From an uncultured Candidatus Berkelbacteria bacterium (lineage in GTDB: Bacteria > Patescibacteriota > UBA1384 > UBA12157), in the NCBI GenBank assembly GCA_903877885.1, contig CAIRFN010000006.1:86054-150053 (forward strand): DNA of 64,000 nucleotides, read 5' to 3'. Position numbers and translations under genes: made by a program. Shown here in pieces: positions 27,340 to 60,914 of the stretch. Position 1 is the first letter of the stretch; every line of letters begins with the position of its first letter. A model generated the notes under the pieces. That model saw nothing but the letters and a program-made list of their open reading frames with translations. It was not told where the DNA came from and made no database searches.

Positions 27340-27343
27340 CGGT

Positions 27344-29376: not shown

Positions 29377-29559
29377 GTTGATTTATGGTTTGTTTTTTGC
29401 TATAATCAAATAGAATTTAATTTTAGATATTTATAAAACCCATGATTCATGCTTCATGATACATGATTCAATTTTTGTCGGGGATTGGTGCTTTACCTAA
29501 AGGCAGCTGGTTTACAGATGTCTGACGACATCATAGAGCGCCAAGTATTTTTTATCTGT

Positions 29560-29632
29560 CGGGGTGTGGCTCAGTTGGTAGAGCGCCGCTTTTGGGAAGC
29601 GGAGGTCGTGAGTTCGAGTCTCGCCACCCCGA
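29560..29632 (+). tRNA. tRNA-Pro(TGG)
   Basis: Acceptor CGGGGTG/CACCCCG, anticodon loop TTTGGGA, T-loop GTTCGAGTC. Embedded in a 19-bp extended flanking helix. Confidence 0.8.
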
Positions 29633-29652
29633 CAGATAAAAAATACAAATAT

Positions 29653-29716
29653 AGAGCGGAGGTTGTGACGATTACTTTGGTAATCGGATAGCGTTCGAGT
29701 CTCGCCACCCCGACCA
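29653..29716 (+). other. Partial duplicate of the tRNA-Pro 3' half with a 28-nt hairpin insertion, ending in CCA
   Basis: 'GAGCGGAGGT' plus insertion CGATTAC-tttg-GTAATCG plus 'GTTCGAGTCTCGCCACCCCGACCA'. Confidence 0.55.
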
Positions 29717-29762
29717 CTTTAGTTTTTAGTAATTAGTATTTAGAAATTAGAATTTAATCCCT

Positions 29763-29833
29763 GCGGGTATAGCTCAATGGTAGAGTACAAGTTTTCCAAA
29801 CTTGCTACGCGGGTCCGATTCCCGCTACCCGCT
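29763..29833 (+). tRNA. tRNA-Gly(TCC)
   Basis: Acceptor GCGGGTA/TACCCGC, anticodon loop TTTCCAA; CCA encoded. Confidence 0.85.
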
Positions 29834-29969
29834 CCAAGTAAAATTCCTTTCTGTAAAATGGATTACATCCTATTCTTACAGAAACGTCATCACTTGGCAC
29901 AGCCAGATTGATAGAGAATTTTACGCAGTCCCGTGATCACCGCAGTGATTTTATGGGACAATTATCATT

Positions 29970-30042
29970 GCCCTCGTAGTTCAATGGATAGAACAGCGGC
30001 GTTCTAAGCCGCGTGTTGGGGGTTCGATTCCCTCCGAGGGCG
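29970..30042 (+). tRNA. tRNA-Arg(TCT)
   Basis: Acceptor GCCCTCG/CGAGGGC, anticodon stem GCGGC/GCCGC, loop GTTCTAA; CCA encoded. Confidence 0.85.
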
Positions 30043-30127
30043 CCAAAATCAGGGGGTTCGCCTTTAGGTAAAGTATCCCTCCTGGGGCACCAAAAATTAT
30101 CAAATATTTATATTTAGAGAGGGAATC

Positions 30128-31153
30128 ATGCGTACAAAAATTGTTTGCACTATTGGTCCTAACACCGAATCTGATGAAAAAATTAAAGAACTCATCGAAA
30201 ATGGCATGAATGTTGCCAGGCTTAATTTTTCGCACGATACTCATAAAAATCATGCTAAAAGAATTAAAACCATTCGAAAATGGGCAAAGCGTTTAAAGAA
30301 AAACGTGGCTATTTTGTGTGATTTGCAAGGTCCAAAAATTCGCACTGCTGATTTTCCTAATCCGCCACGCAAATTACGCGATGGCCAGAACGTTGTTTTA
30401 ACCAGTTCTGTTTGCGAAAAATGTAAGGCCAACGAAATCATGATTATGGATCCTTATATTCATACTGATGTGAAACCAAAAGATACTATTCTAATCGATG
30501 ATGGCGCGATTGAATTGATTGTGGTTAAAATTGTAGAACATCAAATTTTCTGTAAAGTTCTACATGGCGGCGATGTTTATCCGAAAAAAGGCGTGAACTT
30601 GCCACTGACAAAAACCACGACTAATTCCTTAACCGATAAAGATAGAATTGATTTGGAATTTATTTTAACTCAAGAACCAGATTGGATTGCTATTTCCTTT
30701 GTTCAAACCGCTAATGATGTGGAAGTTTTAAGAGAATTGATGGGTAAATCCAAAGCTAAGGTTATGTGCAAAATCGAAACGGCAGTGGCGATTGATAATC
30801 TCGATCCAATTATCCGCGCTTCCGATGGTATTATGGTTGCGCGCGGCGATTTGGGCGTAGAAATGCCAATTGAAAAATTGCCTTTGATCCAAAAACAAAT
30901 TATCAAACGTTGTAATTATGATGCCACTCCGGTGGTGACTGCGACTCATATGCTTTCAAGTATGACTCATTCGCCATTTCCAACCAGAGCAGAAGTGACC
31001 GATATTGCTAATGCTGTTTTTGACGGCACTGACGCGGTAATGCTTTCTAATGAAACTACGATTGGTAAATATCCGGTTGAAGCCTTGAAAACCATGCGCA
31101 AGATTGTCGAAGAAACCGAAAAATATTTATACAAAAGAGAAAACGATCTCTAA
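30128..31153 (+). CDS. pyk: Pyruvate kinase (short form lacking the C-terminal regulatory domain)
   Basis: 'MRTKIVCTIGP...ARLNFSHD' N-terminus; 'MVARGDLGVE' active-site region. Confidence 0.8.
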   Translation: MRTKIVCTIGPNTESDEKIKELIENGMNVARLNFSHDTHKNHAKRIKTIRKWAKRLKKNVAILCDLQGPKIRTADFPNPPRKLRDGQNVVLTSSVCEKCKANEIMIMDPYIHTDVKPKDTILIDDGAIELIVVKIVEHQIFCKVLHGGDVYPKKGVNLPLTKTTTNSLTDKDRIDLEFILTQEPDWIAISFVQTANDVEVLRELMGKSKAKVMCKIETAVAIDNLDPIIRASDGIMVARGDLGVEMPIEKLPLIQKQIIKRCNYDATPVVTATHMLSSMTHSPFPTRAEVTDIANAVFDGTDAVMLSNETTIGKYPVEALKTMRKIVEETEKYLYKRENDL

Positions 31154-31199
31154 ATTTTCTTGAATTTTAATCTGTTTTATGGTAAGATAAGGTTGATAT

Positions 31200-31273
31200 G
31201 GCGGCTGTAGCTCAGTTGGTAGAGCAATTGGTTGTGGTCCAATCGGTCGCGCGTTCGAATCGCGTCAGCCGCC
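31200..31273 (+). tRNA. tRNA-His(GTG) with G-1
   Basis: Extra 5' G pairing with discriminator C; anticodon loop TTGTGGT; CCA encoded. Confidence 0.85.
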
Positions 31274-31404
31274 CCATATAGAAGATGGAATTATCAAAAA
31301 ATCAGGCCAAAAGCCTGGTTTTTTGTATTCAAAAAATTCTGTAATTAACCTGAAACCAATTTTTCCCTTGACGATTTTAAAAATAAAGTGTAAAATATAG
31401 TTTC

Positions 31405-41197: not shown

Positions 41198-41242
41198 AAA
41201 CCAATAAAAAACCAACCTCCGGGGTTGGTTTTTTATTGGTTT
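41198..41242. terminator. bidirectional rho-independent terminator with a perfect 20-bp stem
   Basis: AAACCAATAAAAAACCAACC / GGTTGGTTTTTTATTGGTTT between convergent genes. Confidence 0.7.
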
Positions 41243-41251: not shown

Positions 41252-42715
41252 TTAAATTTTTCCGAGATCTAAAACATCATTAAATTTTATTTGGGCGACA
41301 AAGTCGGGCATGTGACTAACCATGATTACAGTACCGGAAAAATCATTAATAGCTTTGGCAATGACTGGCAAATGTCTAAAGTTGATGTGGTTAGTTGGTT
41401 CATCTAAAATCAAAAGTCCCGGTTGCATTAAAACGAGTCGAGCAAAACTCAAAAGTCCTTTTTGTCCTTCAGAGAGCTCACTGATTTTTCGGCCCATCAA
41501 ATCGCCAGTGATTAAAAAGCCGGCGGCGACCGATCGAAGTGTCTGTTCGTCAGTACCTTCAAGCAAAATTGAAGTTAAGGACTCAAAAACGGTTTGGTCA
41601 AAATCTAAATTGGAAAAATCTTGGCTGTAATAACCAACGCGAACTCCGTCTAAAATTTTAGCGTGTTCGTTTTTGCCACTGACCAAACTGCGTAAAAATG
41701 TGCTTTTGCCAACGCCGTTTGGACCAGCGACTAAAAGATGCATTTTCTTACGTAATTTAAGATCAACCTTTTTCATCTGTGGCTCGTGATTGCGAATGAC
41801 TTTGATGGCATCAATTTCCACAATATTACCAACAATGTCTTGGACTTCAATGTCAAAATTTCGAATGGTGCGATCTTCGCGACGGACATCCACCATATTT
41901 TCTTCCATATCGGCCGCTTCGTCTTTGAGTTTTTTAGCCAGCTGGCGCATTTTTCCACCTTTGTGGGCGAAAAAGTTAACCTTCTCTTTACGGTCGATAA
42001 TCGAACGGTGCAGTTGAGCATTTTTCATTTGTTCGCGCTCAATTCGCTTGGTGATTTCCAAGACGACGGAATAATAATCGCCAACATAGGTTTCAATTTT
42101 GTGAGTAAAATTATCCAAATAAATAACACCTTCGGTAAAACAATTCAAAAAGTCAGCGTCATGAGAAATCACAATCACGGTTTTTGGGTACATGACCAAA
42201 AATTCAATCAAATGGTCGATGCCGGCTTGATCTAAATTATTGGTCGGCTCGTCGAGTAATAAAATATCGGAATTTTGAATTAAGGCAAATGAAAGTAATA
42301 ATCGCGCTTGTTGACCACCGGAAAGTTCACCAACTTTTCGTTCGGTCGGGACATCTAAGTTAACCGCAGTCATCACCTTATACATTCGGCTTTGCAAATC
42401 ATTTGGAGTTTCGTCAAAGGCTTTGGTAAAATATTCGGTGACGGTTAAATCTAAATCTTCGCGAGCTACAACCTGACGGGCAGTCGCAATTGAAGCGTGA
42501 TTAGTGACGGAAACTTGACCGGCTTTAGGTTTTAATTCGCCAGTGATTAATTTAAATAGAGAACTTTTGCCAGCGCCATTTTGGCCCATCAAAGTAATTT
42601 TGGCTGATTGGCGCACCGAAAAACTAGCGCCACTTAAAATTGGCTTGTCATGAACATATTCAAAATCAACTTCGTCGAATCGTAAAATTACTTCTTCTGG
42701 CATGGTTTTTGTCAT
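41252..42715 (-). CDS. ABC-F family ATPase (tandem ABC domains, no TMD)
   Basis: Two Walker A sites (GQNGAGKSS, GPNGVGKST) and two signature motifs (LSGGQQAR, LSEGQKGL). Confidence 0.8.
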   Translation of the reverse strand: MTKTMPEEVILRFDEVDFEYVHDKPILSGASFSVRQSAKITLMGQNGAGKSSLFKLITGELKPKAGQVSVTNHASIATARQVVAREDLDLTVTEYFTKAFDETPNDLQSRMYKVMTAVNLDVPTERKVGELSGGQQARLLLSFALIQNSDILLLDEPTNNLDQAGIDHLIEFLVMYPKTVIVISHDADFLNCFTEGVIYLDNFTHKIETYVGDYYSVVLEITKRIEREQMKNAQLHRSIIDRKEKVNFFAHKGGKMRQLAKKLKDEAADMEENMVDVRREDRTIRNFDIEVQDIVGNIVEIDAIKVIRNHEPQMKKVDLKLRKKMHLLVAGPNGVGKSTFLRSLVSGKNEHAKILDGVRVGYYSQDFSNLDFDQTVFESLTSILLEGTDEQTLRSVAAGFLITGDLMGRKISELSEGQKGLLSFARLVLMQPGLLILDEPTNHINFRHLPVIAKAINDFSGTVIMVSHMPDFVAQIKFNDVLDLGKI

Positions 42716-42829: not shown

Positions 42830-42863
42830 AAAAAACCGCTTATTGCTAAGCGGTCTGATTTTT
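42830..42863 (-). terminator. rho-independent terminator closing the radical-SAM operon
   Basis: Minus strand CCGCTTAGCAATAAGCGG followed by TTTTTT; overlaps the stop codon of 42846..43466. Confidence 0.55.
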
Positions 42864-43466
42864 ATTGAATGGTAGTTGTTCTAATAGCTGTTCGTGAATT
42901 TTAGTATGCCTCAACCAGATTATTTTTTTAATAATTAATGGTAATTTCTTGGTTTTTAAGAAGAAAAGATTCTGCCATGTTTGGGCTGAAATCATTTCTT
43001 CCAGATGACCTTGGATTAAATCAACTTGGTAGAAATTAGCAAAGCCAAACAAAGTTTCGGTGATTGAGCTAATACTGGCTCTAATCTCTGGTTCTGGTCC
43101 TGGTTCATCTTGATCGGCTAAGCGTCGAATTTTTTCACTTTGTTCGATCAGTGAGAAAAATCGAGTCAACGGGTCAAAACTTTCGGTGGAAACAATATTG
43201 ACAGTTTCCGGAAAATCTAACTCATTAATATAACAAAACCGAATCAAGACAAAGAGGATATCGGAAAGTTCATCGACTAATTTGTGTCGAGATTTTTGTC
43301 CATGGCGATATTTTTCCCAAATTGTCAGCATTCTTCCAAGCGAACCGATCTCTGTGACTAATTCCAAAAAAGTGGTGTCATTGGTCCAGATTCTCGGTTC
43401 AATCTTGTCAAAACCTTTGATCGTTGGGATCGAAGCTTCGATTAGTTGATCGATGTTAATGGTCAT
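42846..43466 (-). CDS. MazG-like all-alpha NTP pyrophosphohydrolase superfamily protein (divergent, tentative)
   Basis: 'W...FLELVTEIGSLGRMLTIWEKY...KLVDELSDILFVLIRFCYINELDF' resembles the MazG 'E.GEL...ELaDvl..l' pattern, but the first EExxE is degenerate. Confidence 0.4.
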   Translation of the reverse strand: MTINIDQLIEASIPTIKGFDKIEPRIWTNDTTFLELVTEIGSLGRMLTIWEKYRHGQKSRHKLVDELSDILFVLIRFCYINELDFPETVNIVSTESFDPLTRFFSLIEQSEKIRRLADQDEPGPEPEIRASISSITETLFGFANFYQVDLIQGHLEEMISAQTWQNLFFLKTKKLPLIIKKIIWLRHTKIHEQLLEQLPFNKNQTA

Positions 43467-44733
43467 TTTTTTCTCCTAACAAATCGACAAAGCAGTAAGG
43501 ATCTTCGCCATTTAGTTTGCCGGTGGCAAAATAGGCGCCGATTGGGCAGGTGCCAAAGCACTTTTTAGTCCAATATTGGCAAGAGAAACATTTTTCCGGT
43601 TTACAGGATTTAAGTTGGCGATAATTCTGCCAGGTTGGTGACTCGTGCCAGATTTTCAGCAGGCTTTCTTCAAGCAAATTACCAGCCACAAACAAGCTTT
43701 TTTCTAAGTCTGTTAGCAACTCCATTTTTTGGACTGGAGCGACTTCACAAGGAAAAACATTGCCTTGTGGTGAAACAAAAGCAAATTCTCGGCCCGCCGG
43801 ACAAGCGTGAATTCTGGGTACAATCGGGTGGGCCGGCAGATTTTCAGTGGACAATAAATCAAAATCCATTACCACTTTAGCTTTAGGATATTTTTTGCGC
43901 CAACCTTCAACCAGTCGATTGAATTCGAGTGTTTCGGCCGCGGTCAACATTTGCTTCTGAACTTCTTCATTGGCACCGCGGCCGAATGGCCTTGGATGAA
44001 TAAAATCGATCAAAAGTAAATCTAATTGCTGACAGAGTGCTAATAGTGGCTCGACTGATTGATAATTAAGACGGGACAAAACCGTGTTGATTCTGACTTT
44101 GGGAATTCCCGCCGCTTTCAAACGGCTGATTGTTGCCACAGTCTGGTCATACGATCCGCCGGGCCGGAAATTGTCATTAATCTTTTTCGGGCCGTCGAGC
44201 GAAATAATCACATCGTCGATTTGGCGTTTGCAAATTTCATGAGTTAATTCATCAGTCCAAACGCCATTACTGGCTAGGCTGGTGTAAAAACCCAATTCAA
44301 TGGCATAGTCCAAAATCTCCAAAAAGTCTGGTCGCATAGTTGGTTCTCCGCCAGTTAAACGCGCTTCGAACACGCCGACGCGATGCATCTCATCCAGAAC
44401 TTTTTTCCAGTCTTCGGTGGTCATTTCGTTTTCCAAGGCTTGACCCGCCCCGTTGTAACACATTTTGCAACGCAGGTTACATTTACGAGTTAAAACCAAG
44501 TAAAGGCGATTTGGTGCCATAATGGTTTGACTGGGATACACTCCTTGAAAAGTCTGGTGAGAGTCGCTGTTTGAATCTCCGGCTTGACAGAAAAAGCAGT
44601 TGTCTTGGTTTAGGAATGTTTCTGCCTCTTCGCTTGAGCAAGTGAAAAATCGGCGACTGACTGCATCAAATACAGTGAAATAGGAACTAATAGCCAGTTC
44701 TTGTCTGGCTCGATATCGTAGTTTACTCATCAT
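43456..44733 (-). CDS. Radical SAM / SPASM-domain enzyme with an ~85-aa N-terminal extension (RRE-like)
   Basis: 'CNLRCKMC' CX3CX2C; C-terminal Cys-rich SPASM ('CPAG...C...CFSCQYWTKKCFGTCP'). Confidence 0.8.
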   Translation of the reverse strand: MMSKLRYRARQELAISSYFTVFDAVSRRFFTCSSEEAETFLNQDNCFFCQAGDSNSDSHQTFQGVYPSQTIMAPNRLYLVLTRKCNLRCKMCYNGAGQALENEMTTEDWKKVLDEMHRVGVFEARLTGGEPTMRPDFLEILDYAIELGFYTSLASNGVWTDELTHEICKRQIDDVIISLDGPKKINDNFRPGGSYDQTVATISRLKAAGIPKVRINTVLSRLNYQSVEPLLALCQQLDLLLIDFIHPRPFGRGANEEVQKQMLTAAETLEFNRLVEGWRKKYPKAKVVMDFDLLSTENLPAHPIVPRIHACPAGREFAFVSPQGNVFPCEVAPVQKMELLTDLEKSLFVAGNLLEESLLKIWHESPTWQNYRQLKSCKPEKCFSCQYWTKKCFGTCPIGAYFATGKLNGEDPYCFVDLLGEKNDH

Positions 44734-45620
44734 ACGCTCACTTTCTCGAGTTGGTCGATAAACCAGGCCTCGAAGTCCAGCGCGGCCGAACTGCCGCTTT
44801 CCACTGCCACGTCCAGTAAATGATCTAAATACTGGTCGTAGGTTGTGGCATTGTATTCTTCCAGAGTTTTACAAAAACTCAAACCGAAAACTTCGGCCGC
44901 GCCAAATTTGAAATTGGCGTTGTTGGGAAAAGATTTAATCCGCGGTAAAACATAGGTGACTCCATTGTAAAACAACGGATTATACGGTCTGTCAATCTGG
45001 CATATAGTGTTAAAAACTTGGTTTTGACCGATTCGATCAATGGTGGAAATTTCCATAATTTGAATCGGAAAATCCAGTCGCCTGATGGTCAAATGCGGAT
45101 TAGTGTAGGCGATTCCAGTTATTTCGTTTTTAATTGCTGGTAAACCGTTTTCCACAAAAATTGATTGAGCGTGAAAATGAGGTTCAAAACTGGCGCCAGA
45201 ATTTTTCATATTGCAAAACACACTTGAACCGCATTGAGTTGAAAATTCTCTCAGAAATCGGAAGTCTTTGACTTTTGGATTCGGTCGATGCTCGTCAGTC
45301 AAAATTAAATAATGACAAATCGCCGAGCAACGGGGATGAAGCAGAAATGTCATATGATCGGATTTCGCGGTTTTAATTAAACCCGAGCCGGTTTCTTCCG
45401 GATCGCAGAGAAAACAGATTTGCTTACCGTTAGCGTCAAATTGTGGTATTGCTTGGGTTAAATACCATTTTTCAATATTTTGCGAATAAATTACGGTCAA
45501 ATATTGTCTTTTTGTCGGATCTTCTGGCCGCAAGATTTTGCGCTTGCAGACATCGTCTTTCATGGTTTGACCATGAACTTGTTCCCAGGTTTCGCGTAGA
45601 ACCGTATTTAAATCTGGCAT
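44730..45620 (-). CDS. GalT-family (HIT superfamily) nucleotidyltransferase/phosphorylase-like protein
   Basis: Zn-site-like 'QICFLCDPEE' and active-site-like 'SFEPHFHAQ' (compare GalT 'CFLC', 'SNPHPHGQ'); RBS GGGGGA before MPDLNTV. Confidence 0.6.
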   Translation of the reverse strand: MPDLNTVLRETWEQVHGQTMKDDVCKRKILRPEDPTKRQYLTVIYSQNIEKWYLTQAIPQFDANGKQICFLCDPEETGSGLIKTAKSDHMTFLLHPRCSAICHYLILTDEHRPNPKVKDFRFLREFSTQCGSSVFCNMKNSGASFEPHFHAQSIFVENGLPAIKNEITGIAYTNPHLTIRRLDFPIQIMEISTIDRIGQNQVFNTICQIDRPYNPLFYNGVTYVLPRIKSFPNNANFKFGAAEVFGLSFCKTLEEYNATTYDQYLDHLLDVAVESGSSAALDFEAWFIDQLEKVSV

Positions 45621-45746
45621 TTTCGTTTCCCCCTGATTGTTAAGGTATCTCATCCTGATTCCAATCTTCAATTTTAATTCAAGATTGGAATAAAAACCGG
45701 AGAACTTTGAAAGTCTCCGGATCTCTAAATTTACTTCAGAGATTGA

Positions 45747-47120
45747 TTAAAGATATTTTTTGTAGCAGTAAGGGTCCTGGCCATAGAGTTTGCTATTTTC
45801 GATTCGGCCACCGTTGGCAATAACCATTGCTCGGCATTTGCCTTCGCATTGCTTCATATAGAATCGACAACCGTGGCAACCGACCTTCTTGGTATTGCGG
45901 AAGTGTTCCATCGATGGGTGAAGCCAGGCTTCTTGAACTGAAGTATCGATTAAGTTCGGTCCTTTAAATTCCGGTTCATCCATCAGGAAACTGCAGGCGT
46001 TGACCGAGCCGTCAGGGCAAAGCCCAAAACCGGTTGAAAGCGCGCCGCAATCCGAATAATTGAATGGGTAAGGCAGCTCGCTTTTATCCGGGTAGTCGGG
46101 TGAGAAGCAATCCATGTTCTTGTGGATAATTTTGATACCCGATTCGCGGATGAACGTCGTTTCTCTTGTTTGTTGAACCGCTCGGCAAAATTCCATATAT
46201 TCCTCGGTGCTCAACATGGTGTCGGGAAGCCCCGTGGTACTGCGACCATATGGCCGCAGAGGCACAAAGTTCAGGTTATAACCATGCTGTGCGGCTAAAC
46301 TGGCGACATAAGGCATTTCTATTGCGTTATCGCGAGCTACGGTCATATTGATAGTGACACCGATGGTTTTCTGGTGACAACGGTTATAGTGATCCAGAAA
46401 ATCGAAAGTCCACATGATTTTGCTAAACGTGCCGAGATTGCGACGTTTGTCATTGGTTTCTTCAGTGCCTTCCAGGGAAATGATGACTTCGTCGACTCCG
46501 GCATCAGTAATATCTTTGGCTACTTGCTCGCTCCAACAGCCGTTGGTATTGAGCATCACGGCCATGCCTAAACTTTTGGCATAAGCAATAGCTTGGGGTA
46601 AGTCGTCGCAAGAAGTCGCTTCGCCGCCGGTAAAACGCCATTCCATGGTGCCAGCGAGATAAAATTTATCCATAATCTGCATTGTTTGTCCTAATGTTCG
46701 CCGGTGACTGTCAGCATTTTTGCTGGCCGCCAAACAACATTGGGGGCAATCCAGATTGCATTGTCGAGTGTAAGTGTCATAGACGCGAAGCGGGGCACTC
46801 AAACAATGTTGGGGGATAATTGGGTTTCGAACTAATCGGGTTTTGCCATTGTAAACACAGTTAACATAATCGTTATCCATGATTTCCAAGGCACCCATAT
46901 CCACAAAGCGCATAATTTCGGCGCGATCATAACCATATTTAATTAAATCTGGTATGTGTACGCCGTATGATCCGCAATGTTTAGTGATATGATCAGCTTG
47001 CAATATTTCCGCTACCATTTTATAGGTTCTGTCATCCAAAACATCGCAGCGGATTTTTTGAGCATCATGTAAGATGCCACCGAAATACTCTTTTCGAAGG
47101 GTAAAGCGCGTAGTTATCAT
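45747..47120 (-). CDS. Radical SAM / SPASM-domain enzyme with N-terminal RRE-like (PqqD-type) extension
   Basis: RBS AGGAGGTG before 'MITTRFTLRKEYFGGIL...'; 'CNLDCPQC' CX3CX2C; C-terminal SPASM cysteines. Confidence 0.8.
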   Translation of the reverse strand: MITTRFTLRKEYFGGILHDAQKIRCDVLDDRTYKMVAEILQADHITKHCGSYGVHIPDLIKYGYDRAEIMRFVDMGALEIMDNDYVNCVYNGKTRLVRNPIIPQHCLSAPLRVYDTYTRQCNLDCPQCCLAASKNADSHRRTLGQTMQIMDKFYLAGTMEWRFTGGEATSCDDLPQAIAYAKSLGMAVMLNTNGCWSEQVAKDITDAGVDEVIISLEGTEETNDKRRNLGTFSKIMWTFDFLDHYNRCHQKTIGVTINMTVARDNAIEMPYVASLAAQHGYNLNFVPLRPYGRSTTGLPDTMLSTEEYMEFCRAVQQTRETTFIRESGIKIIHKNMDCFSPDYPDKSELPYPFNYSDCGALSTGFGLCPDGSVNACSFLMDEPEFKGPNLIDTSVQEAWLHPSMEHFRNTKKVGCHGCRFYMKQCEGKCRAMVIANGGRIENSKLYGQDPYCYKKYL

Positions 47121-47130: not shown

Positions 47131-48117
47131 CTACAGTGTCCAGTTCGGGTCTTTGGCAAAGAGTTTATCAATCAAGACTTGATAGCTGGAAAACCAGCTT
47201 TCTTTAGTCGCCAGGCAAATACCGCAACAAGCTAAGTCGGCATGGCCATCTAAACTTGATTGGCGAATCGCTTGGAATTTGTCGTTTTGCCAAATTCTGG
47301 CAATCGTCTGGTCAGGATCATTTAAATCTCCAACCAGATCGTGATCAGCCCAATCATTGAAACAAGCGTTAACTTGTCCCCAGGGATTGATGGAAAATCT
47401 TGTCCAAAGTTGTGCACAAGGCACAACTTTACTTCTGTCTTGATCGCCAATTGGCGCCAACCGTCCACCATAGGTATGGTAGGGACGAACAATTGTCATA
47501 TCGGCCAGCTTATTCCAGTAATTCAAAAAAGTTTCTTTCTCTTCCTGGAATTCCGGACAATCAACGGCCGAAACAATAATGCGGGTTTGATAACCACCGC
47601 TGTTACGCAACCGAATTAAATTAATGGCATTTTTAACTACCGTTTGAAAATAATTCGTGCCACGAAACTGTTGGTACAATTTTTCGCTAGCCGCATCAAT
47701 GCTTAATTCCAGTAGATCGATGCCAGTATCCAGAAGATTTCTGGCATAGGTGTCGTCCAAAAGGATTACATTGGTAAAACTAGTAACTCTTTTTACACCG
47801 GCTTTTTTGGCATACTTAGCCATATCAATGTAATGCGGGTGCATTAGTGGTTCGCCTCGGCCGTGAAAACGGAGAATTGACCACGGGTATTTTGCAATCT
47901 CGTCAGCGATTTTGGGAAAGAGTTTCCATGGAAAAAATGCCTTTTTCCGGGGATCGAATTCTCCAGTTTTATCTTGTCCCATTTGACCGCGGCGAGACAG
48001 TCCCACCGGGCATTTAAGACAATTGCTGTTGCAAATGTAATGCTCTAAAGCAATTTGAACGACAACAGGAAATTCCTGCTCTTCACTGGTTTGAAAACCA
48101 TAGCTGAAATCTTTCAT
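47131..48117 (-). CDS. Radical SAM enzyme with SPASM/twitch-like C-terminal cysteines, no N-terminal extension
   Basis: 'CNSNCLKC' CX3CX2C at residue ~28; C-terminal 'C...C...CCGIC'; RBS AAAGGAGG. Confidence 0.7.
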   Translation of the reverse strand: MKDFSYGFQTSEEQEFPVVVQIALEHYICNSNCLKCPVGLSRRGQMGQDKTGEFDPRKKAFFPWKLFPKIADEIAKYPWSILRFHGRGEPLMHPHYIDMAKYAKKAGVKRVTSFTNVILLDDTYARNLLDTGIDLLELSIDAASEKLYQQFRGTNYFQTVVKNAINLIRLRNSGGYQTRIIVSAVDCPEFQEEKETFLNYWNKLADMTIVRPYHTYGGRLAPIGDQDRSKVVPCAQLWTRFSINPWGQVNACFNDWADHDLVGDLNDPDQTIARIWQNDKFQAIRQSSLDGHADLACCGICLATKESWFSSYQVLIDKLFAKDPNWTL

Positions 48118-48128: not shown

Positions 48129-49406
48129 TTAGCGGTTGTCTGGTAACGTTTGGGCCCAGCTTCGTTGGAGTTTTCGCTCCATGGTCTCGATGACCAAATC
48201 ACGCCAAACCTCCACATCCTGTGGTGTAAAATATTCGGTTTGGACAACATAACAAGTGCTCCTGCCTCGACCGACTTGAATATATTTACTGTAATCGCGG
48301 TCAATTGTGGCGCCATATGCCTCGGGATTTTCCCAGACTGCTGTTCCCGGATAGGGAATAAACGGATAAACCACGAATTCATCAAACGGACAATTTTTTA
48401 ATCCTTCAATAGATTCGTAGATAGTTTCTTCTGTTTCACCAGGAAAACCAACCAGAATATAAATTCTAACTTTTAATCCGGCGGCTTTGGCGTTTTGAAT
48501 GGCTTTTAGATTAGTCTCGGCTCGAGTTTGTTTTCCCAAAATAGAAAGCATTTTATTAGACATACTTTCCACACCAATAGCGACATGACGACAACCACTT
48601 TGAGCTAACTGCTCGCAGGCGGTTGAGTTTAAGTTATTGGCTCTGGCAAAAACTCGATAGAGAATATCTAGCGGCGCAATTGCTTTGGTCATTTCGGTAA
48701 TACGATGCGGCGAAAAGGTAAATAAGTCATCACTAAAACGGAAATTGGTTGTGCCGAAATTCGCGTTTAAACTTTGAATTTCAGTGACAACATTTTCCGG
48801 TGAGCGAAATCTTAATTGACCTCGACTAAACACCAGGCTGTTACAAAATTTGCAATTGTATGGACAACCCCGGCTAGAAATCAAACTAATACTTGGTTTT
48901 GTCTCTACAATTCGATTGTAACTAGCTAAATCGGTCAAATCATAATTTGGAAAAGGTAATCGATCTAAATCCTGAAGTGGTTGACCAACTAAAATACCTT
49001 TGGCTAGATAGCCATTGGCTTTGTAATTGGTAATTACTTCAGGAAAAGTTTGATCAGCCTCGCCAGTAATAATTAAATCAAAATCTTTGGCCGATTCGAC
49101 AGCAAGCGCACTAACATGCGGCCCGCCAGCAATAGTTAAAGCTTGCGGGTTAATATTTTGCAATATTAAATTTTTTATTTCCAAAGTTCGCGCGTAAGTT
49201 ACCGAATAAGTCGAGAAAGCATAAATTTTAGCGGCAGGGATTTGTTCGAGCCACTTGGTTGAGTCGAGGCCTGACAGATCGCAGATCTGACAAGAAATGC
49301 CCATTTTTTGAACAAGAGTGGCCAGGTAAAGAATGCCGAGTGGCGCTTCAAGCCGATCGTCATTTAATTCCGGGCACGGTGTGTTGACGAAAACTACGTC
49401 ACGCAT
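48129..49406 (-). CDS. B12-binding-domain radical SAM enzyme (class B)
   Basis: N-terminal Rossmann-like B12-binding region; 'CPYNCKFC' CX3CX2C; RBS GGGGGA. Confidence 0.75.
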   Translation of the reverse strand: MRDVVFVNTPCPELNDDRLEAPLGILYLATLVQKMGISCQICDLSGLDSTKWLEQIPAAKIYAFSTYSVTYARTLEIKNLILQNINPQALTIAGGPHVSALAVESAKDFDLIITGEADQTFPEVITNYKANGYLAKGILVGQPLQDLDRLPFPNYDLTDLASYNRIVETKPSISLISSRGCPYNCKFCNSLVFSRGQLRFRSPENVVTEIQSLNANFGTTNFRFSDDLFTFSPHRITEMTKAIAPLDILYRVFARANNLNSTACEQLAQSGCRHVAIGVESMSNKMLSILGKQTRAETNLKAIQNAKAAGLKVRIYILVGFPGETEETIYESIEGLKNCPFDEFVVYPFIPYPGTAVWENPEAYGATIDRDYSKYIQVGRGRSTCYVVQTEYFTPQDVEVWRDLVIETMERKLQRSWAQTLPDNR

Positions 49407-49460
49407 TTGTTCCCCCTTCGACCCTTAAGCTTTTAAGGTTCATCGAAATTGAACACCTTC

Positions 49461-49488
49461 AGTATAGTCTCTTTTGTCAATCTGTCAA
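49461..49488 (-). promoter_or_regulatory. sigma70-like promoter (TTGACA-16-TATACT) upstream of the B12-rSAM gene
   Basis: Read on the minus strand in the 146-bp gap; -35 hexamer is duplicated (TTGACAgaTTGACA). Confidence 0.45.
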
Positions 49489-49539
49489 GAGGGTAAAGTT
49501 AAAAATTAAAAGTGTTTATTGTGAAATCGACGGATATTA

Positions 49540-49570
49540 AAAAAAGCGGTGTTTAGCCGCTTTTGGTATT
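49540..49570 (-). terminator. terminator-like hairpin overlapping the stop of the RNB gene
   Basis: Minus strand AAAGCGG-CTAAACA-CCGCTTT followed by TTTT. Confidence 0.45.
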
Positions 49571-50716
49571 GTCGATTTTTTGGTTAATGAGATTGCATAT
49601 ACCAGTTGCCGCTGATTTTCTTGCTAAGTTTTGTTGAGCTAAGCGTCTGGTTTTATACTGAAGTTTTTCTCCCATGAAAAGCATTTGACACTCACCGATA
49701 AAGAATCTGTCTTCAGGTTTGACGTGAATCTTGGGAATGGGGACTTGATGAGCTCTGCACCATTTTGATAGAGTTTCGATGGTATCAGTCTCAATGACTA
49801 TTCTTTTATACTCGCGAAGGTCATCTTCTGGTTTGTTTAAAACTTTTGTATTAAGTCTTTGCAAAAGTTCCGATAAATTTTCTTCATTGTAATAATTGTT
49901 CTGGTTCGTTAAGGTTGAAATTAATATTCTTTGATTTACTAAATCGCTAAAACGTCTAATTGGTGATGTAGCCCTAAGATAATAGTCGATTTTCATGTCT
50001 TCGTGTTTTTCTGGAGTAATTGAATAATTAGCAATAGACAAAACCTCGGTTTTCTTATGAACACGATAAAGTGCTGGTATACCAAGGTTTTTTAAATATT
50101 GAGCTACTAAGAGATTAAAAAGAATACTAAATTCAGTTATGATTATATGACCTTCTGTCTCGATTGAGTCACAAGCGAGACGCTTGCCGTCATCGTCGAA
50201 AATTATTCCTTCGCAAACATCTTCTCTAGAGATTTTTCTTTCAGGGAATCTTTTTCTCATAAGCTCCAGTGCCAGGTCAAAAGCTTGATTTATCATGGGA
50301 AAAATTTCGTCATGATTATTTCGTAACAACCAATGTATATCGGAGTAAAAAAGCTTTTTGATACTTCTAAAAATGGACTGGACAAATCGGGGTGTTCCAA
50401 GCAAATTGTAATCTTTGTCGAAAGAAATAACCATGGTTAGCGCTTGTCTGGTTTGACTTGGTAGAAAACTCGCTGTGCATTCAGCAATATTTTTTGGAAG
50501 CATATGCTTAATGGCAGTGCCATTTAAACGATAAACAGACTCTATTTGCTCATAAGCATTTATATCAAGTTCTGATCCTATTGGTATAATTGACGCGACT
50601 TCCGAAACAGAAATATTCAGTTTAAATATATCGTCTGTTCTTGTGAGCCAAAAACCGTCGTCTAAATCCATTGATGACGGTCGATCAATCGTAACTCCTG
50701 TCAAATTACATCTCAT
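49553..50716 (-). CDS. RNB-domain (RNase II/R catalytic domain) exoribonuclease without CSD/S1 domains
   Basis: Motif I 'TIDRPSSMDLDDGFWL' (D..D.DD) and 'YYLRATSPIRRFSDLVNQR' (compare 'HFTSPIRRY.DL..HR'); RBS AAGGAGGTG before ATG at 50716. Confidence 0.65.
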   Translation of the reverse strand: MRCNLTGVTIDRPSSMDLDDGFWLTRTDDIFKLNISVSEVASIIPIGSELDINAYEQIESVYRLNGTAIKHMLPKNIAECTASFLPSQTRQALTMVISFDKDYNLLGTPRFVQSIFRSIKKLFYSDIHWLLRNNHDEIFPMINQAFDLALELMRKRFPERKISREDVCEGIIFDDDGKRLACDSIETEGHIIITEFSILFNLLVAQYLKNLGIPALYRVHKKTEVLSIANYSITPEKHEDMKIDYYLRATSPIRRFSDLVNQRILISTLTNQNNYYNEENLSELLQRLNTKVLNKPEDDLREYKRIVIETDTIETLSKWCRAHQVPIPKIHVKPEDRFFIGECQMLFMGEKLQYKTRRLAQQNLARKSAATGICNLINQKIDNTKSG

Positions 50717-50754
50717 GGTAACCACCTCCTTGAGTTTGTTAATGTTCTTTGACC

Positions 50755-50783
50755 ACTATACCTTAAAAGAGAAGTTATGTCAA
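50755..50783 (-). promoter_or_regulatory. near-consensus sigma70-like promoter (TTGACA-17-TATAGT) driving the RNB gene and the operon
   Basis: Minus-strand TTGACAtaacttctcttttaaggTATAGT about 35 nt upstream of the RBS. Confidence 0.5.
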
Positions 50784-51036
50784 TGAAAAATAGGGGACGA
50801 AATTGGGGACGGTTCTGCCTGCCTGCCGGCAGGCAGGTTTTGACCTGAAGATTAGGCTTTTTGGGATTTTTTAAAATATTAAAAATAAATACAAAAAAAT
50901 CCACCAAATGATTTTTGTAAATCATCTCGCGGATTTCTGATTTTTGGTAGACTTAATGCACTTTCCTTCGAACACCTTTTGAAATGGCTCGATCAAATTA
51001 TGAGAGCATGTCTACTACCCAAGGATCAGGATAAAT

Positions 51037-51252
51037 TTATATCTTGATCTCTTTTATTTTTAAAACTTCCTTAACTTCTCGTACCTTTTCAACTGACGGA
51101 TTAACCTCGTCTCGCTCCATCTGGGCATAGTAGTTAGTGCTGATATCGGCTTTCTCGGCTACCTCCAATTGGGTCAGGTGAAGTTTTTCCCTGGCTGCCT
51201 TGAACTGTTCGCCGATTGTTTGATTCGATTTTGTAGAATTATCAGTACCCAT
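51037..51252 (-). CDS. XRE-family helix-turn-helix transcriptional regulator (71 aa)
   Basis: 'LTQLEVAEKADISTNYYAQMERDE' HTH_3 pattern. Confidence 0.7.
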   Translation of the reverse strand: MGTDNSTKSNQTIGEQFKAAREKLHLTQLEVAEKADISTNYYAQMERDEVNPSVEKVREVKEVLKIKEIKI

Positions 51253-51306
51253 ACCGTTATTTTAGCAGATTTTACGCCTTATGACCAGTGGTCTGAAACT
51301 TTAAGA

Positions 51307-51525
51307 CTATTTGTCCGCCTGATCGCTCTGTGGGCCGCCGGATTCCAAGACATCAAGAAGTCGTTTCAACCATTCTTCTTTACCAATTTCGTCAATCATC
51401 TTGGCGTTAGCCTTGACCCAAGTTTCCTTTGAAACCATAGTCTCATGCTCCAAGCAAAGCGCCGGCAAAATATTGATAGCGTAAAACGGGTTGGCAAACA
51501 TTTCTTCAAGTTCTTTTTCATTCAT
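51307..51525 (-). CDS. hypothetical small protein upstream of the HTH gene
   Basis: 72-aa ORF co-oriented with the HTH gene, 54 nt gap. Confidence 0.35.
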   Translation of the reverse strand: MNEKELEEMFANPFYAINILPALCLEHETMVSKETWVKANAKMIDEIGKEEWLKRLLDVLESGGPQSDQADK

Positions 51526-56550: not shown

Positions 56551-56730
56551 TAATTTTAGCGAGTACGGGATTTACGGACAGCTCGGAAACCCACGGTTTT
56601 CCGACGTCCGGCATAAATGTCGGACTGCCTTCCTCTAGCGGTAAACCTCTGGTTTCCCGACCCCTTCCTGGTCCGAATCCCAAATCTACATTAAAGCAAA
56701 AAATTCACCGAAATGGTGAATCCTTTGCTT

Positions 56731-56804
56731 TAGCGCGTGCGGGATTCGAACCCGCGATCTACAGAATGAAAATCTGTTATCCTAGGCCTCTAGACGAACG
56801 CGCC
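56731..56804 (-). tRNA. tRNA-Glu(TTC)
   Basis: Minus strand: acceptor GGCGCGT, classic Glu D-arm 'TTCGTCTAGAGGCCTAGGA', anticodon loop TTTTCAT, T-loop GGGTTCGAATCCC. Followed by a hairpin plus T-run terminator (56700-56730). Confidence 0.85.
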
Positions 56805-56808
56805 ACAT

Positions 56809-57066
56809 CTATATTGTTAAGCTATCTCCGATATTTTCCTTTAAAAAATCTCTTTGCCCACCTTTTTTCTTAAGATTGATTTCTCTTCGACGAGCATCTT
56901 TCTCGGATAGATACGCCTCGTAATAAATCAATTTGTAAGGTTTATGCTTATTTGTGTAATTTACTTTTCCTAAGTTGTGTTCGATTAATCGTCTTTTAAT
57001 GTCATTACTATAACCAGTATAAGTGGTGTTGTCTCCAATACTTTTAATCAAATAGACGTAATACAT
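56809..57066 (-). CDS. GIY-YIG nuclease family small protein (UPF0213/YhbQ-like)
   Basis: 'YYVYLIKS...TYTGYSNDIKRRLIEHN' GIY...YIG motif; 85 aa. Confidence 0.8.
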   Translation of the reverse strand: MYYVYLIKSIGDNTTYTGYSNDIKRRLIEHNLGKVNYTNKHKPYKLIYYEAYLSEKDARRREINLKKKGGQRDFLKENIGDSLTI

Positions 57067-57067
57067 T

Positions 57068-57125
57068 TCAGGCCTCTAGCCCGCTAACCGCGGGTCCGCG
57101 TATAGCGGAACGAACGCGCCACATC
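57068..57125 (-). other. Duplicated tRNA-Glu 5' segment (acceptor plus D-arm start) interrupted by a 30-nt twin-hairpin insertion
   Basis: Plus strand 'ggcctctag[cccgctaaccgcgggtccgcgtatagcgga]acgaacgcgccacatcta' against tRNA-Glu 'ggcctctagacgaacgcgccacatcta'. Confidence 0.55.
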
Positions 57126-57265
57126 TAAAAATATTATATCATATTTTATCTCAATTGTCTATAACTTCTCAGTCTTGAAAGCTTGATTTTATGTTGAATT
57201 TTTGATACGATTAGTATGAAATGTATGAATTTAATTAAAATTATAAAAGGATAAAAAGTTCTAAT

Positions 57266-57886
57266 ATGAAAAAAAATCTCTTTCAAAACAAATCAATCGT
57301 ATCTGTAATTATTATTTTACTAATTGTTGCCATTATCGGTGGTTACCTCTTTTGGCAAAAAATTAATTCCACGGTGGCTATTGATACGGCTCAAATTTCC
57401 GCACCGCAAATGAATTTAATTTCCGCTAATGGTGGAACTTTGAAAGAGGTTTTTGCCCAGGAAGGCGATGTTTTACCGCCTAATTCCTTGATTGCTCGGG
57501 TGGATAACGAAATTATTAAAACTCGAACTGGCGGTGAATTGATTAAACTTAATGATGGCGTTGGTCGGGCTGTGAGCAAAGGCGAAGCAATTGCGACAAT
57601 TATTAGTCCTGGCGATTTGCAAGTTGTTGGTAAAATCGCTGAAAATAAAGGGTTGGATTCGATTCATGTTGGCCAAAACGCTTATTTTACAGTCGACGCC
57701 TTTGGCTCACAAAAGTTCTATGGCACGGTTAGCGAAATCGGCGCCACGGCCGACGTTGGTGCTTTAACATTCAATATTTCCGACAAACGAACTCAACAGA
57801 ATTTTGATGTTAAAATCAGTTATGATGTTAACGCCTATCCGGATTTGAAAAATGGTATGTCAGCTAAGATTTGGATTATCAAATAA
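57266..57886 (+). CDS. HlyD-family membrane fusion protein (short, EmrA-like)
   Basis: N-terminal TM, biotinyl/lipoyl-like 'ARVDNEIIKT', beta-barrel C-terminus. Confidence 0.55.
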   Translation: MKKNLFQNKSIVSVIIILLIVAIIGGYLFWQKINSTVAIDTAQISAPQMNLISANGGTLKEVFAQEGDVLPPNSLIARVDNEIIKTRTGGELIKLNDGVGRAVSKGEAIATIISPGDLQVVGKIAENKGLDSIHVGQNAYFTVDAFGSQKFYGTVSEIGATADVGALTFNISDKRTQQNFDVKISYDVNAYPDLKNGMSAKIWIIK

Positions 57887-57910
57887 ATTTGAAATTACGA
57901 AAGTTCTAAA

Positions 57911-59410
57911 ATGACTATTGGTAAAAAAAACGTCGATATGAAATGGATTGTTCTTTTGACCGTTATCATCGGGACTTTTTTGGGTCGACTTGATCAGACT
58001 ATTGTGGGTTTGGCCACTCCGAAAATTATTCAAGATTTTGGCATTACGATTTCTTCGGCCGGTTGGATTTCCACCGCCTACATTATTGCCAATGCGATTT
58101 TTGTACCGATTTGGGGAAAACTTGGTGATCTAATTGGTCGGCGCAAAGTTTATATTACCGGTTTTGTGGTTTTTATTATTGGTTCAGTTCTGGCTGCTTT
58201 TGCTTGGAATTTGGGCTCAATGGTGGTCTTCCGGGTGATTCAAGCCATCGCCGGTTCGGCTGATTATCCAACTGCGATGTCGATTTTATATTTTACTTTC
58301 AAAGATGAAAAAGAACGCAATCAAGCCTTGGGTATTTGGTCAGCGTCGTTTGCTGCGGCCGTGGTTTTTGGACCACTGATTGGTGGGCCGCTGATCGATA
58401 ATTTTGGTTGGCCATCGGTTTTTATGTTAAACTTGCCGGTCGGTATTCTTGGTTTAGCTATGGCCTATATGTTTATTCAGGAATCGCGATCTGAAGAAAA
58501 AATTGTCAATTTTGACTGGTTTGGCGCTTCATATTTAGGCATTGTCTTAGCCTCTCTAGTTTTAGTTTTGGACAAAGGTTTGAGCTGGGGCTGGTTTTCT
58601 CTAAATAGTGTAATTGCTTACACCAGCATTATTGTCTTTTTGATTGCGTTTATTAAAGTCGAAACAAGTCACCCTGAACCGATTGTGGATTTAAAATTTT
58701 TCAAAAACAGTATTTTAGTTAACACAATGGTAAACAATTTTATTACTTTTATGGGTATGATGATGTTGATTTTTTTAATTCCGATTTTTGTTCAAACTTA
58801 TTTAGGTTTCGATGCAACTAAAACCGGTTTTCTCTTTTTACCAATGGCTTTTGGCATGCTTTCCACTGCGCCCTTGGGTGGTGCTTTGAAGGGAAAAATT
58901 CAAGCCCGATTTATTATTATGGCCAGCTCTTTTGTGGCGGCCATTGGCATGTTTATGTTTATCGGACTGGATGCTAAATCTGGACCGTTAGATATTGGTT
59001 TACCATTATTTATCATGGCTGCAGGCATGGGTTTTGGGATGGCACCACGCACTAGTATCGTTGCTTCAGCTGTGCCGGCGCATGAAATCGGTAGTGCGTC
59101 TTCGCTTTTGGCCTTGGTTCGTAATATTTCCGGCGCTTTTGGCATTGCTATTGCCGGCACAATTTTAAATAACGGGGTTGAAAGTAAAATCGCTGATTTA
59201 ATGCAAAATAGCAGTTTTACTCTGCCATCAACTCCGGCGCTCCAAGGCGCTTATACTCAAATTTTCGCTGGTTTGGTTCAACTTCGAGCTCAAATATTAA
59301 CTTTCCGTGAAATTTTTGTTTTCGCCGCTGTCATTTCTTTGATTGGTGGCATTGCCGCTTACTGGATTCGAGTGGAAAAAGAATCCGATCTCAAAGTCAT
59401 TGTGGAATAA
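57911..59410 (+). CDS. MFS transporter, DHA2 (EmrB/QacA, 14-TMS) family
   Basis: 14 hydrophobic segments; 'GRLDQTIVGLATPKI' and 'LGDLIGRRKV' MFS motif A. Confidence 0.85.
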   Translation: MTIGKKNVDMKWIVLLTVIIGTFLGRLDQTIVGLATPKIIQDFGITISSAGWISTAYIIANAIFVPIWGKLGDLIGRRKVYITGFVVFIIGSVLAAFAWNLGSMVVFRVIQAIAGSADYPTAMSILYFTFKDEKERNQALGIWSASFAAAVVFGPLIGGPLIDNFGWPSVFMLNLPVGILGLAMAYMFIQESRSEEKIVNFDWFGASYLGIVLASLVLVLDKGLSWGWFSLNSVIAYTSIIVFLIAFIKVETSHPEPIVDLKFFKNSILVNTMVNNFITFMGMMMLIFLIPIFVQTYLGFDATKTGFLFLPMAFGMLSTAPLGGALKGKIQARFIIMASSFVAAIGMFMFIGLDAKSGPLDIGLPLFIMAAGMGFGMAPRTSIVASAVPAHEIGSASSLLALVRNISGAFGIAIAGTILNNGVESKIADLMQNSSFTLPSTPALQGAYTQIFAGLVQLRAQILTFREIFVFAAVISLIGGIAAYWIRVEKESDLKVIVE

Positions 59411-59448
59411 AATCATTTACAAAAAAAGGACCGATAAATCAGTCCTGG

Positions 59449-60886: not shown

Positions 60887-60914
60887 CCACTTATTTTATT
60901 TAGAAATTATATAT

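Follow-up and report, generated by a model that had tools for sequence, protein, structure and literature searches.

A cross-phylum operon of radical SAM/SPASM enzymes with RRE-like modules and nucleotide enzymes, without a nearby precursor gene, in an uncultured Berkelbacteria bacterium

Radical S-adenosylmethionine (SAM) enzymes that combine a SPASM domain with a peptide recognition element are routinely taken as markers of clusters for peptides that are made on ribosomes and modified after translation (RiPPs; the element is hereafter RRE, RiPP recognition element). A 64,000-nucleotide stretch of contig CAIRFN010000006.1 from an uncultured Candidatus Berkelbacteria bacterium, called here the window, encodes two enzymes that resemble them, rSAM-A and rSAM-B. 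A preliminary description of the sequence had proposed that both carry an RRE and that no cognate precursor lies nearby. What, then, do they act on? We found that they belong to a cassette that recurs across phyla, with nucleotide enzymes and without a precursor gene. The operon may make or tailor a small molecule tethered to a nucleotide, with enzymes of RiPP-maturase ancestry; we favour this reading tentatively, giving it a little less than an even chance.

The region that had drawn attention, 43456-47120 on the minus strand, contains three genes, encoding rSAM-B, a DUF4922 protein and rSAM-A. They are part of a six-gene minus-strand operon, in the order B12-rSAM, rSAM-C, rSAM-A, DUF4922, rSAM-B and MazG-like gene, with four radical SAM genes compared to the two flagged at first. 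Its features, from the 5′ end, are as follows.

49564-49542: terminator of the upstream RNB gene
49461-49488, minus strand: sigma-70-like promoter of the operon (TTGACA, 16 nt, TATACT; 11 of 12 positions match)
49399-49443, minus strand: 14-codon open reading frame (ORF) MNLKSLRVEGGTNA in the 5′ untranslated region (UTR), overlapping the B12-rSAM start codon
48129-49406, minus strand: B12-rSAM, cobalamin-binding class B radical SAM protein, 425 aa (Pfam B12-binding and Radical_SAM)
47131-48117, minus strand: rSAM-C, 328 aa radical SAM protein with a SPASM/twitch-like C-terminus (CX3CX2C at residue 29)
45747-47120, minus strand: rSAM-A, 457 aa radical SAM/SPASM protein with an N-terminal RRE-like domain
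45621-45746, minus strand: structured intra-operon spacer with three hairpins (folding, minimum free energy -38.7 kcal/mol, z = -3.3)
44730-45620, minus strand: DUF4922 protein, 296 aa, assigned to the GalT/Apa2/GDPGP1 branch of the HIT superfamily
43456-44733, minus strand: rSAM-B, 425 aa radical SAM/SPASM protein with a truncated RRE-like module
42846-43466, minus strand: putative MazG-like all-alpha nucleoside triphosphate (NTP) pyrophosphohydrolase, 206 aa, last gene of the operon
42833-42856, minus strand: intrinsic terminator at the operon end (10-bp stem, then a T run)

None of the six ORFs is disrupted; they have ribosome-binding sites, and their starts are coupled. The rSAM-A gene starts at an ATG with an AGGAGG ribosome-binding site on its 5′ side; a longer ORF starting at a TTG at 47171 was rejected, as it would overlap the gene upstream. 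The rSAM-B gene shares nucleotides with both neighbours, its start with the DUF4922 stop and its end, over 11 nt, with the MazG-like gene, and these start/stop codon overlaps couple the three genes. The length of rSAM-B is 425 aa in our model and 424 aa according to public gene callers. The GC content of the cassette is 42.9%, compared to 38.1% for the window.

Two gaps had been reported in the operon, of 146 bp (49407-49552) and 126 bp (45621-45746), and both were recovered exactly. The first indeed contains a promoter, the sigma-70-like site at 49488-49461, and the 14-codon ORF. Hairpins are also present in the second, but there are three of them rather than two. The middle one is terminator-like (CCGGAGA...UCUCCGG, then U5) and, lying between rSAM-A and DUF4922, could attenuate the distal three genes. 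The spacer is not conserved: it measures 19-160 bp in orthologous cassettes, from which the terminator-like hairpin is absent. Rfam recognised no riboswitch in the 5′ UTR or the spacer; the scan returned tRNAs only.

The elements of rSAM-A and rSAM-B that matter for their classification are, all on the minus strand:

46896-47108, minus strand: rSAM-A RRE-like domain, residues 5-75 (AlphaFold, alignment, Foldseek, hhalign)
46830-46889, minus strand: rSAM-A second small three-stranded sheet before the core, residues 78-97 (AlphaFold; R95 invariant)
46737-46760, minus strand: rSAM-A CX3CX2C motif (C121, C125, C128), invariant in 64 homologs
45765-46049, minus strand: rSAM-A SPASM region (Cys 358, 376, 415, 418, 425, 429, 452)
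44587-44715, minus strand: rSAM-B truncated RRE-like module, residues 7-49 (AlphaFold; hhalign to the rSAM-A module)
44458-44481, minus strand: rSAM-B CX3CX2C motif (C85, C89, C92)
43492-43803, minus strand: rSAM-B SPASM region (Cys 311, 329, 382, 385, 392, 396, 414)

The overall anatomy proposed for the two proteins was confirmed. The N-terminal motifs quoted for them lie at residues 5-19 in rSAM-A and 5-23 in rSAM-B; 120 and 84 residues, respectively, precede the CX3CX2C motif (the first core strand comes after about 105 and 70); and both end in a SPASM cluster of seven cysteines, above the Pfam SPASM cut-off. The spacing is CX17C (358-376), CX2CX6CX3C (415-429) and C452 in rSAM-A, and the corresponding cysteines of rSAM-B are C311-C329, C382-C396 and C414. 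In both proteins they are invariant across more than 60 homologs. Pfam Radical_SAM was matched with E = 1.7e-12 (rSAM-A) and 1.7e-26 (rSAM-B). Neither protein reached a curated NCBIfam cut-off for any peptide-maturase family. The MftC model TIGR03962 gave 170 bits with rSAM-B and 84 with rSAM-A, for a cut-off of 265, and the PqqE model TIGR02109 gave 144 and 70 bits, for a cut-off of 381. At the sequence level, rSAM-B matches PqqE (6c8v) with E = 1e-28. No pqqA-D or mftA/B/D/E/F gene was found among the operon or flanking genes. The Foldseek/PDB match lists also include the small-molecule enzymes BlsE (7vob), DesII (8hzv), MoaA and viperin.

Are the N-terminal extensions RREs? In the AlphaFold model of rSAM-A (predicted local distance difference test score, pLDDT, 93.6; alignment of 64 sequences), strands at residues 6-11, 14-19 and 24-28 are followed by helices at 30-46, 56-61 and 66-75. 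This extension is thus predicted to adopt the RRE/PqqD topology of three strands and three helices. The structural alignment with the streptide maturase SuiB covers about 480 columns, N-terminal domain included, compared to only about 372-379 columns for PqqE and anSME, which have no RRE. For SuiB, CteB and SkfB, all of them RiPP maturases with an RRE, Foldseek E-values were about 1e-16 to 1e-20, with the N-terminal domain spanned. A profile of the extension matched neither the PqqD Pfam family (PF05402) nor any PDB sequence. Searched against 1.84 billion cluster representatives, it retrieved 41 proteins only, meaning that the module is rare.

The rSAM-B model (pLDDT 89.8) is different. Strands at 7-11, 18-23 and 28-33, a helix at 34-41 and a strand at 46-49 are followed by a low-confidence, disordered linker at residues 54-65, and RRE helices 2 and 3 are missing. 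The module is homologous to that of rSAM-A (hhalign, 97.3%), and its orthologs have 20-30 more residues there, the window copy being the shortest. The proposal of RRE-like extensions is therefore well supported for rSAM-A, both by remote homology and by its full predicted fold. For rSAM-B, whose module is truncated, support is only partial. We propose that both proteins descend from RiPP-type maturases and retained the RRE-like domain, complete in rSAM-A and truncated in rSAM-B.

In RREs, leader binding involves strand 3 and helix 3, and helices 2 and 3 form the canonical peptide groove. The invariant residues of the rSAM-A domain (R9, E11, F13, G14, G15 and D19) sit in the hairpin between strands 1 and 2, not in strand 3 or helix 3. 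The RRE-like domain here is probably a structural or docking module rather than a leader-peptide binder.

The two remaining genes of the operon appear to encode nucleotide enzymes. No Pfam match was found for the 206-aa protein, and a profile of five orthologs matched the pyrophosphohydrolase 5ie9 (E = 6e-5), YpjD (2gta, E = 1.7e-4) and dCTP pyrophosphatase 1. By these matches, it resembles a MazG-like nucleoside-triphosphate pyrophosphohydrolase. The DUF4922 protein scores at the Pfam DUF4922 cut-off and has two invariant motifs, CxxC at 69-72 and HxHxQ at 148-152. Its profile weakly matches yeast Ap4A phosphorylase 2 (4i5t, E = 0.009) and HIT proteins. Precomputed domain annotation assigns PF09830, PF16269 or PF26216 (ATP_transf, DUF4922 or GDPGP1_C) to its orthologs. 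Because of these motifs, matches and ortholog domains, we place it, as a sequence-based assignment, in the GalT/Apa/GDP-hexose phosphorylase branch of the HIT superfamily. As for the other radical SAM proteins, all NCBIfam matches of B12-rSAM (ApyD, PhpK, HpnJ) are below cut-off, and rSAM-C has no N-terminal extension.

To what extent does this gene set travel together? We detected 129 full-length homologs of rSAM-A, with 38-59% identity, none of them functionally named; those with a source label are assigned, among others, to Patescibacteria group, Parcubacteria, Nealsonbacteria and Omnitrophota. For the neighbourhood analysis, 61 homolog loci were fetched (numbers preceded by L below). In a first group, of at least 50% identity, the same six genes are found at L001, L006, L022 and L023, and partial copies lie on the short contigs L021, L050 and L061. 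The radical SAM proteins of this group are 50-64% identical to those of the window (57-64% for rSAM-C). The contigs come from metagenome-assembled genomes (MAGs) labelled as different phyla, and the flanks are unrelated between loci, often with mobile-element genes. The spread over differently labelled MAGs, together with the raised GC content, fits a horizontally mobile module. An identical protein was found on at least 16 contigs from independent samples, including the ENA BUCK21-1 metagenomes. At L002/L011:11394-12675, a contig assigned to Bathyarchaeota, the B12-rSAM gene is split into ORFs of 319 and 92 aa, and the DUF4922 and MazG-like genes are absent; this could be a decaying copy or an assembly frameshift.

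Diverged cassettes were obtained from the neighbourhoods of distant rSAM-B homologs (30-40% identity). Besides B12-rSAM, which is kept in every cassette version, they have a gene resembling rSAM-C and between one and five additional SPASM radical SAM genes. Their nucleotidyltransferase and phosphohydrolase genes are:

L066: cytidylyltransferase-like domain fused to the rSAM-B homolog; no phosphohydrolase
L068: NTP_transferase (sugar-1-phosphate) and DUF4922/GDPGP1_C; no phosphohydrolase
L069: DUF4922-like; NUDIX and HD phosphohydrolases
L070 (Promethearchaeota; rSAM-C fused to rSAM-B): DUF4922; HD phosphohydrolase
L071: DUF4922; no phosphohydrolase
L072: NTP_transferase (sugar-1-phosphate); HD phosphohydrolase

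Together with the window type and the decayed L002 type, these six loci make eight cassette types, of which 7 have a nucleotidyltransferase and 5 have a nucleotide phosphohydrolase. Two of the loci encode fusions, which support a functional linkage: a 739-aa protein joining rSAM-C and rSAM-B in a Promethearchaeota MAG (L070:8001-10220), and a 601-aa protein joining the rSAM-B homolog and the cytidylyltransferase-like domain PF01467 (L066:1707-3512).

A second group of rSAM-A homologs (38-48% identity, about 40 loci) has other neighbours. They include a protein of 485 aa whose N-terminus is Gfo/Idh/MocA-like, a 2-phosphosulfolactate phosphatase of the ComB type, an APH-like kinase, a class II ribonucleotide reductase (RNR)-like gene transcribed divergently and sometimes HIT proteins or glycosyltransferases. 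These small-molecule neighbours of rSAM-A relatives favour a non-peptide substrate. The N-terminal motif (R9, E11, G14, G15, D19) is invariant in this group as well, at 40% overall identity, which indicates purifying selection. The group-2 genes form a second conserved cassette, for instance at L043:1418-6333, L015, L017, L019, L042 and L059. In it, the class II RNR-like protein is about 575 aa long and below the NrdJ cut-off, and the 485-aa protein is unannotated, with many invariant His/Arg residues. Among the 15 genome-collection loci, this second cassette is found in MAGs of Levybacteria and Pacebacteria, and also in several that are labelled Gammaproteobacteria.

We then consider whether any of these cassettes encodes a precursor. 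The preliminary description had seen no plausible candidate nearby and had suggested a co-occurrence analysis across related genomes. No precursor was found in the operon, and the intergenic ORFs of at least 20 aa in the window include none that is Cys-rich or conserved. Across related loci, no small ORF was conserved in about 14 cassettes: an all-against-all comparison of ORFs of at least 30 aa from 62 loci returned only shadows of larger genes, micro-ORFs 5′ of the first cassette gene were not conserved, and tblastx of 204 intergenic segments gave only near-identical duplicates and one non-coding repeat. Likewise, about eight orthologous and six diverged cassettes contain no peptidase or exporter gene. 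Since the cluster holds no precursor, rSAM-A and rSAM-B should not be filed as RiPP maturases.

Several individual candidates were rejected along the way. The 14-codon ORF MNLKSLRVEGGTNA, considered as a PqqA- or MccA-like precursor, has no counterpart 5′ of the L001, L006 and L061 cassettes and is probably not a precursor. Three tandem small ORFs at 50713-51525 include an XRE-type helix-turn-helix (HTH) gene and one ORF without a ribosome-binding site, and none is conserved beside the cassettes at other loci. An 83-aa gene 5′ of the L066 cassette is the SPASM tail of a gene cut by the contig end. Finally, the conservation of intergenic segments 3′ of rSAM-A homologs extends over all six frames, which contain stop codons, meaning that these segments are a non-coding repeat and not a peptide gene. 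This element lies directly 3′ of the rSAM-A homolog at L029:11324-11439, L030:7413-7528, L047:950-1065, L031:6873-7679, L034:11321-11707, L012:7133-7640, L013:1138-1661 and L037:11324-11798. It is repeated elsewhere on the same contigs (for example L030:718-1354) and may represent either a small RNA or a repeat of intergenic DNA.

How, then, would the operon work? Its movement between phyla with no substrate gene implies that the cassette acts on a substrate that is either universal or encoded by the cassette itself. Moreover, the only genes that do not encode radical SAM proteins are a nucleotidyltransferase/phosphorylase and a hydrolase, each replaced by analogous enzymes in other versions; this points to a nucleotide-handle logic and favours a small-molecule pathway. 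In such a pathway, the HIT-like enzyme would attach a phosphorylated substrate to a nucleoside mono- or diphosphate, or exchange one. The cobalamin enzyme and the three SPASM/twitch enzymes would use radical C-H chemistry to alter the molecule while it is tethered; they might methylate or dehydrogenate it, form or contract a ring, or make a C-C or C-heteroatom bond. The MazG-like enzyme would then cleave the phosphoanhydride and release the product, or remove an NTP analogue. In a bolder version, which we consider unlikely, the RiPP-type SPASM enzymes exchanged the peptide leader for a nucleotide handle, and the RRE-derived module now recognises that handle: the HIT-like enzyme would tether the cargo, several module-bearing radical SAM enzymes would remodel it and the pyrophosphohydrolase would release the product. 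As to homologs with non-peptide substrates, which the preliminary description had named as evidence against its proposal, gene context suggests them and does not demonstrate them.

Several points weigh against a nucleotide-tethered small molecule, and most of them speak for a pathway that makes a RiPP or modifies a protein, with the substrate gene at another place in the genome, an alternative that we regard as a serious one, if doubtful on balance. Through the RRE-like domain, rSAM-A and perhaps rSAM-B would then bind a leader peptide or a protein tail and install crosslinks, the B12 enzyme would methylate the peptide, and the HIT-like and MazG-like enzymes would nucleotidylate it or process a nucleotide conjugate, as happens in peptide-nucleotide products. 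Foldseek against the PDB ranks SuiB first for rSAM-A, followed by CteB and SkfB, with alignments of 416-480 columns that run the full length of the protein, RRE-like fold included, and the best matches of rSAM-B are SkfB, SuiB and CteB. Both proteins have the full seven-cysteine SPASM domain, and their best sequence families are MftC and PqqE, with WgkB lower in the lists, all of which act on peptides. One protein matched by the rSAM-A extension profile (P0286, E = 9e-4) is a relative of KxxxW/streptide maturases (224 bits against TIGR04080, below the cut-off of 500). It shares the module (hhalign 96.4%, R-x-E-Y-F-G-G motif of strands 1 and 2 common to both), and its gene adjoins that of a major facilitator superfamily (MFS) transporter. 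In the L068 cassette, 4 of the 5 paralogs whose N-termini were inspected bear the N-terminal motif, a pattern expected when several enzymes recognise one leader. The SPASM/twitch enzymes that tailor sugars or nucleosides (BtrN, DesII, BlsE) are not known to have an N-terminal domain of this sort. The search in this genome covered 64 kb, out of contigs of up to 445 kb, so that a precursor may be encoded beyond the window, and very short precursors (below 10-30 aa) could escape ORF screens. Finally, the case for a nucleotide-linked substrate argues from guilt by association. Against a peptide substrate, neither the window nor any of about 14 cassettes from several phyla offers a precursor-like or conserved ORF, and a mobile cassette that travelled without the gene for its substrate would not work once transferred. 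The genes that constantly accompany the radical SAM set encode nucleotide enzymes, and no peptidase or exporter is among them. In addition, the rSAM-B module lacks helices 2 and 3, and the invariant residues lie away from strand 3 and helix 3.

The nucleotide enzymes could also be read in another way, as part of a nucleic-acid or nucleotide-pool system, either for tRNA, rRNA or DNA modification or for anti-phage production of toxic or chain-terminating NTP analogues, like prokaryotic viperins, with the winged-helix-like N-terminal domains binding nucleic acid or nucleotides. Enzymes of the MazG, HD and NUDIX types work on NTP pools, the GC content of the cassette is raised, and the flanks have a mobile or defence flavour: integrases, a TIR-domain protein and Fic at L001, Fic, SNase and an Apyc1-like protein at L069, and PLD-family, HTH, RNB and nucleotidyltransferase genes nearby in the window. 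These flanks are not conserved between loci, however, and the cassette has no nucleic-acid-binding or glycosylase/transglycosylase partner. PADLOC gave weak matches to pVip models and to the candidate PDC-M51A, but they cover the generic radical SAM core only, and the annotation as an anti-phage system was rejected on this ground. The NCBIfam model viperin_w_prok reached 45 bits for a cut-off of 180, and viperins lack the SPASM domain that both proteins have. Four to eight radical SAM enzymes also far exceed any known defence or nucleic-acid modification module, and we consider this explanation quite improbable. Still far less probable is that the extensions are decaying remnants and the operon a non-functional relic of horizontal transfer. 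The rSAM-B module of the window is indeed the shortest among its orthologs, and L002/L011 has a split B12 gene and lacks both nucleotide enzymes. Yet the six ORFs of the window are intact and coupled, the identical protein recurs in independent samples, and catalytic and cluster-binding residues are invariant across at least 60 homologs.

If the product is nucleotide-linked, the substrate range of this enzyme lineage would be wider than assumed, and so would the meaning of "RRE"; very small genomes would moreover keep a costly pathway with four to eight radical SAM enzymes. Should the handle switch be true, a nucleoside, sugar or cofactor-like product would be widespread in uncultivated bacteria and archaea (Patescibacteria and others, with Promethearchaeota and Bathyarchaeota MAGs among them). 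A peptide or protein substrate encoded in trans would, by contrast, make the cassette an unusual peptide-nucleotide RiPP system.

The surroundings of the operon in the window are as follows.

41252-42715, minus strand: ABC-F ATPase, 487 aa, best matching ribosomal-protection-like ABC-F models, below cut-offs
41198-41242: bidirectional terminator with a 20-bp stem, shared by the ABC-F gene and a convergent DEAD-box helicase gene
49553-50725, minus strand: RNB-domain protein, 390 aa, limited to the catalytic domain of RNase II/R, immediately upstream of the operon
51037-51252 and 51307-51525, both minus strand: genes of a 71-aa XRE-type HTH protein and a 72-aa acidic protein, before the RNB gene
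22679-31276 and 56730-61279: eleven tRNA genes, single or in small groups
About 61000-61060: 18-nt tandem repeat in three copies, TSGHNQ in one frame, between tRNA-Arg(tcg) and tRNA-Lys(ctt)

The terminator at 42856-42833 places the ABC-F gene outside the operon. This gene has its own promoter-like site (42817-42789) and its own terminator, and its product has no transmembrane domains. It was rejected as a self-resistance gene of the cluster, being a separate transcription unit that is not conserved with the cassette. The RNB, HTH and acidic-protein genes do not travel with the cassette elsewhere. The GC content of the window, 38%, fits a small, streamlined genome.

A literature search found no paper describing the six-gene cassette, and what is new here is the embedding of RiPP-maturase-like SPASM enzymes in a cassette of nucleotide enzymes. 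Compared to known systems, rSAM-A and rSAM-B share with SuiB (5v1q), CteB (5wgg/5why) and SkfB (6efn) a predicted N-terminal RRE-like domain, the CX3CX2C barrel and a seven-cysteine SPASM domain with two auxiliary-cluster sites. Identity is only 14-20%, however, no precursor, protease or exporter gene is adjacent at any locus, the genomic partners are nucleotide enzymes and the rSAM-B module is truncated. PqqE and MftC are the closest sequence-level matches of the radical SAM and SPASM core, with scores far below the equivalog cut-offs; unlike rSAM-A and rSAM-B, they rely on an RRE supplied as a protein of its own (PqqD, MftB) and on a precursor encoded next to them (PqqA, MftA). BlsE, DesII, MoaA and viperin have the radical SAM core in common with our enzymes, and their substrates (nucleosides, nucleotides, NDP-sugars) are of the class proposed here. 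They differ in having no RRE-like domain, in alignments of about 300-360 columns that leave the N-terminus uncovered, and in ranking below the peptide maturases.

Two antibiotic pathways offer the nearest parallels to the cassette as a whole. In the fosfomycin pathway, Fom1 first cytidylylates the substrate, the B12-dependent radical SAM enzyme Fom3 then methylates the CMP-tethered compound, and hydrolysis by FomD takes the nucleotide off at the end (PMC8158854). The window likewise combines a cobalamin radical SAM enzyme with a nucleotidyltransferase and a phosphoanhydride hydrolase. The likeness is one of logic only, as there is no homology beyond the generic B12-dependent radical SAM class, no phosphoenolpyruvate (PEP) mutase or phosphonate gene, and the window has three extra SPASM-type radical SAM enzymes. 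In oxetanocin biosynthesis, the B12-dependent radical SAM enzyme OxsB works with the HD phosphohydrolase OxsA on dAMP, dADP or dATP (PMC7074753). Compared to this pair, the window has a MazG-like protein rather than an HD protein, plus a HIT-like transferase and three SPASM enzymes; the combination of a cobalamin radical SAM enzyme with a nucleotide phosphohydrolase is nevertheless the same, and diverged cassettes carry HD instead of MazG.

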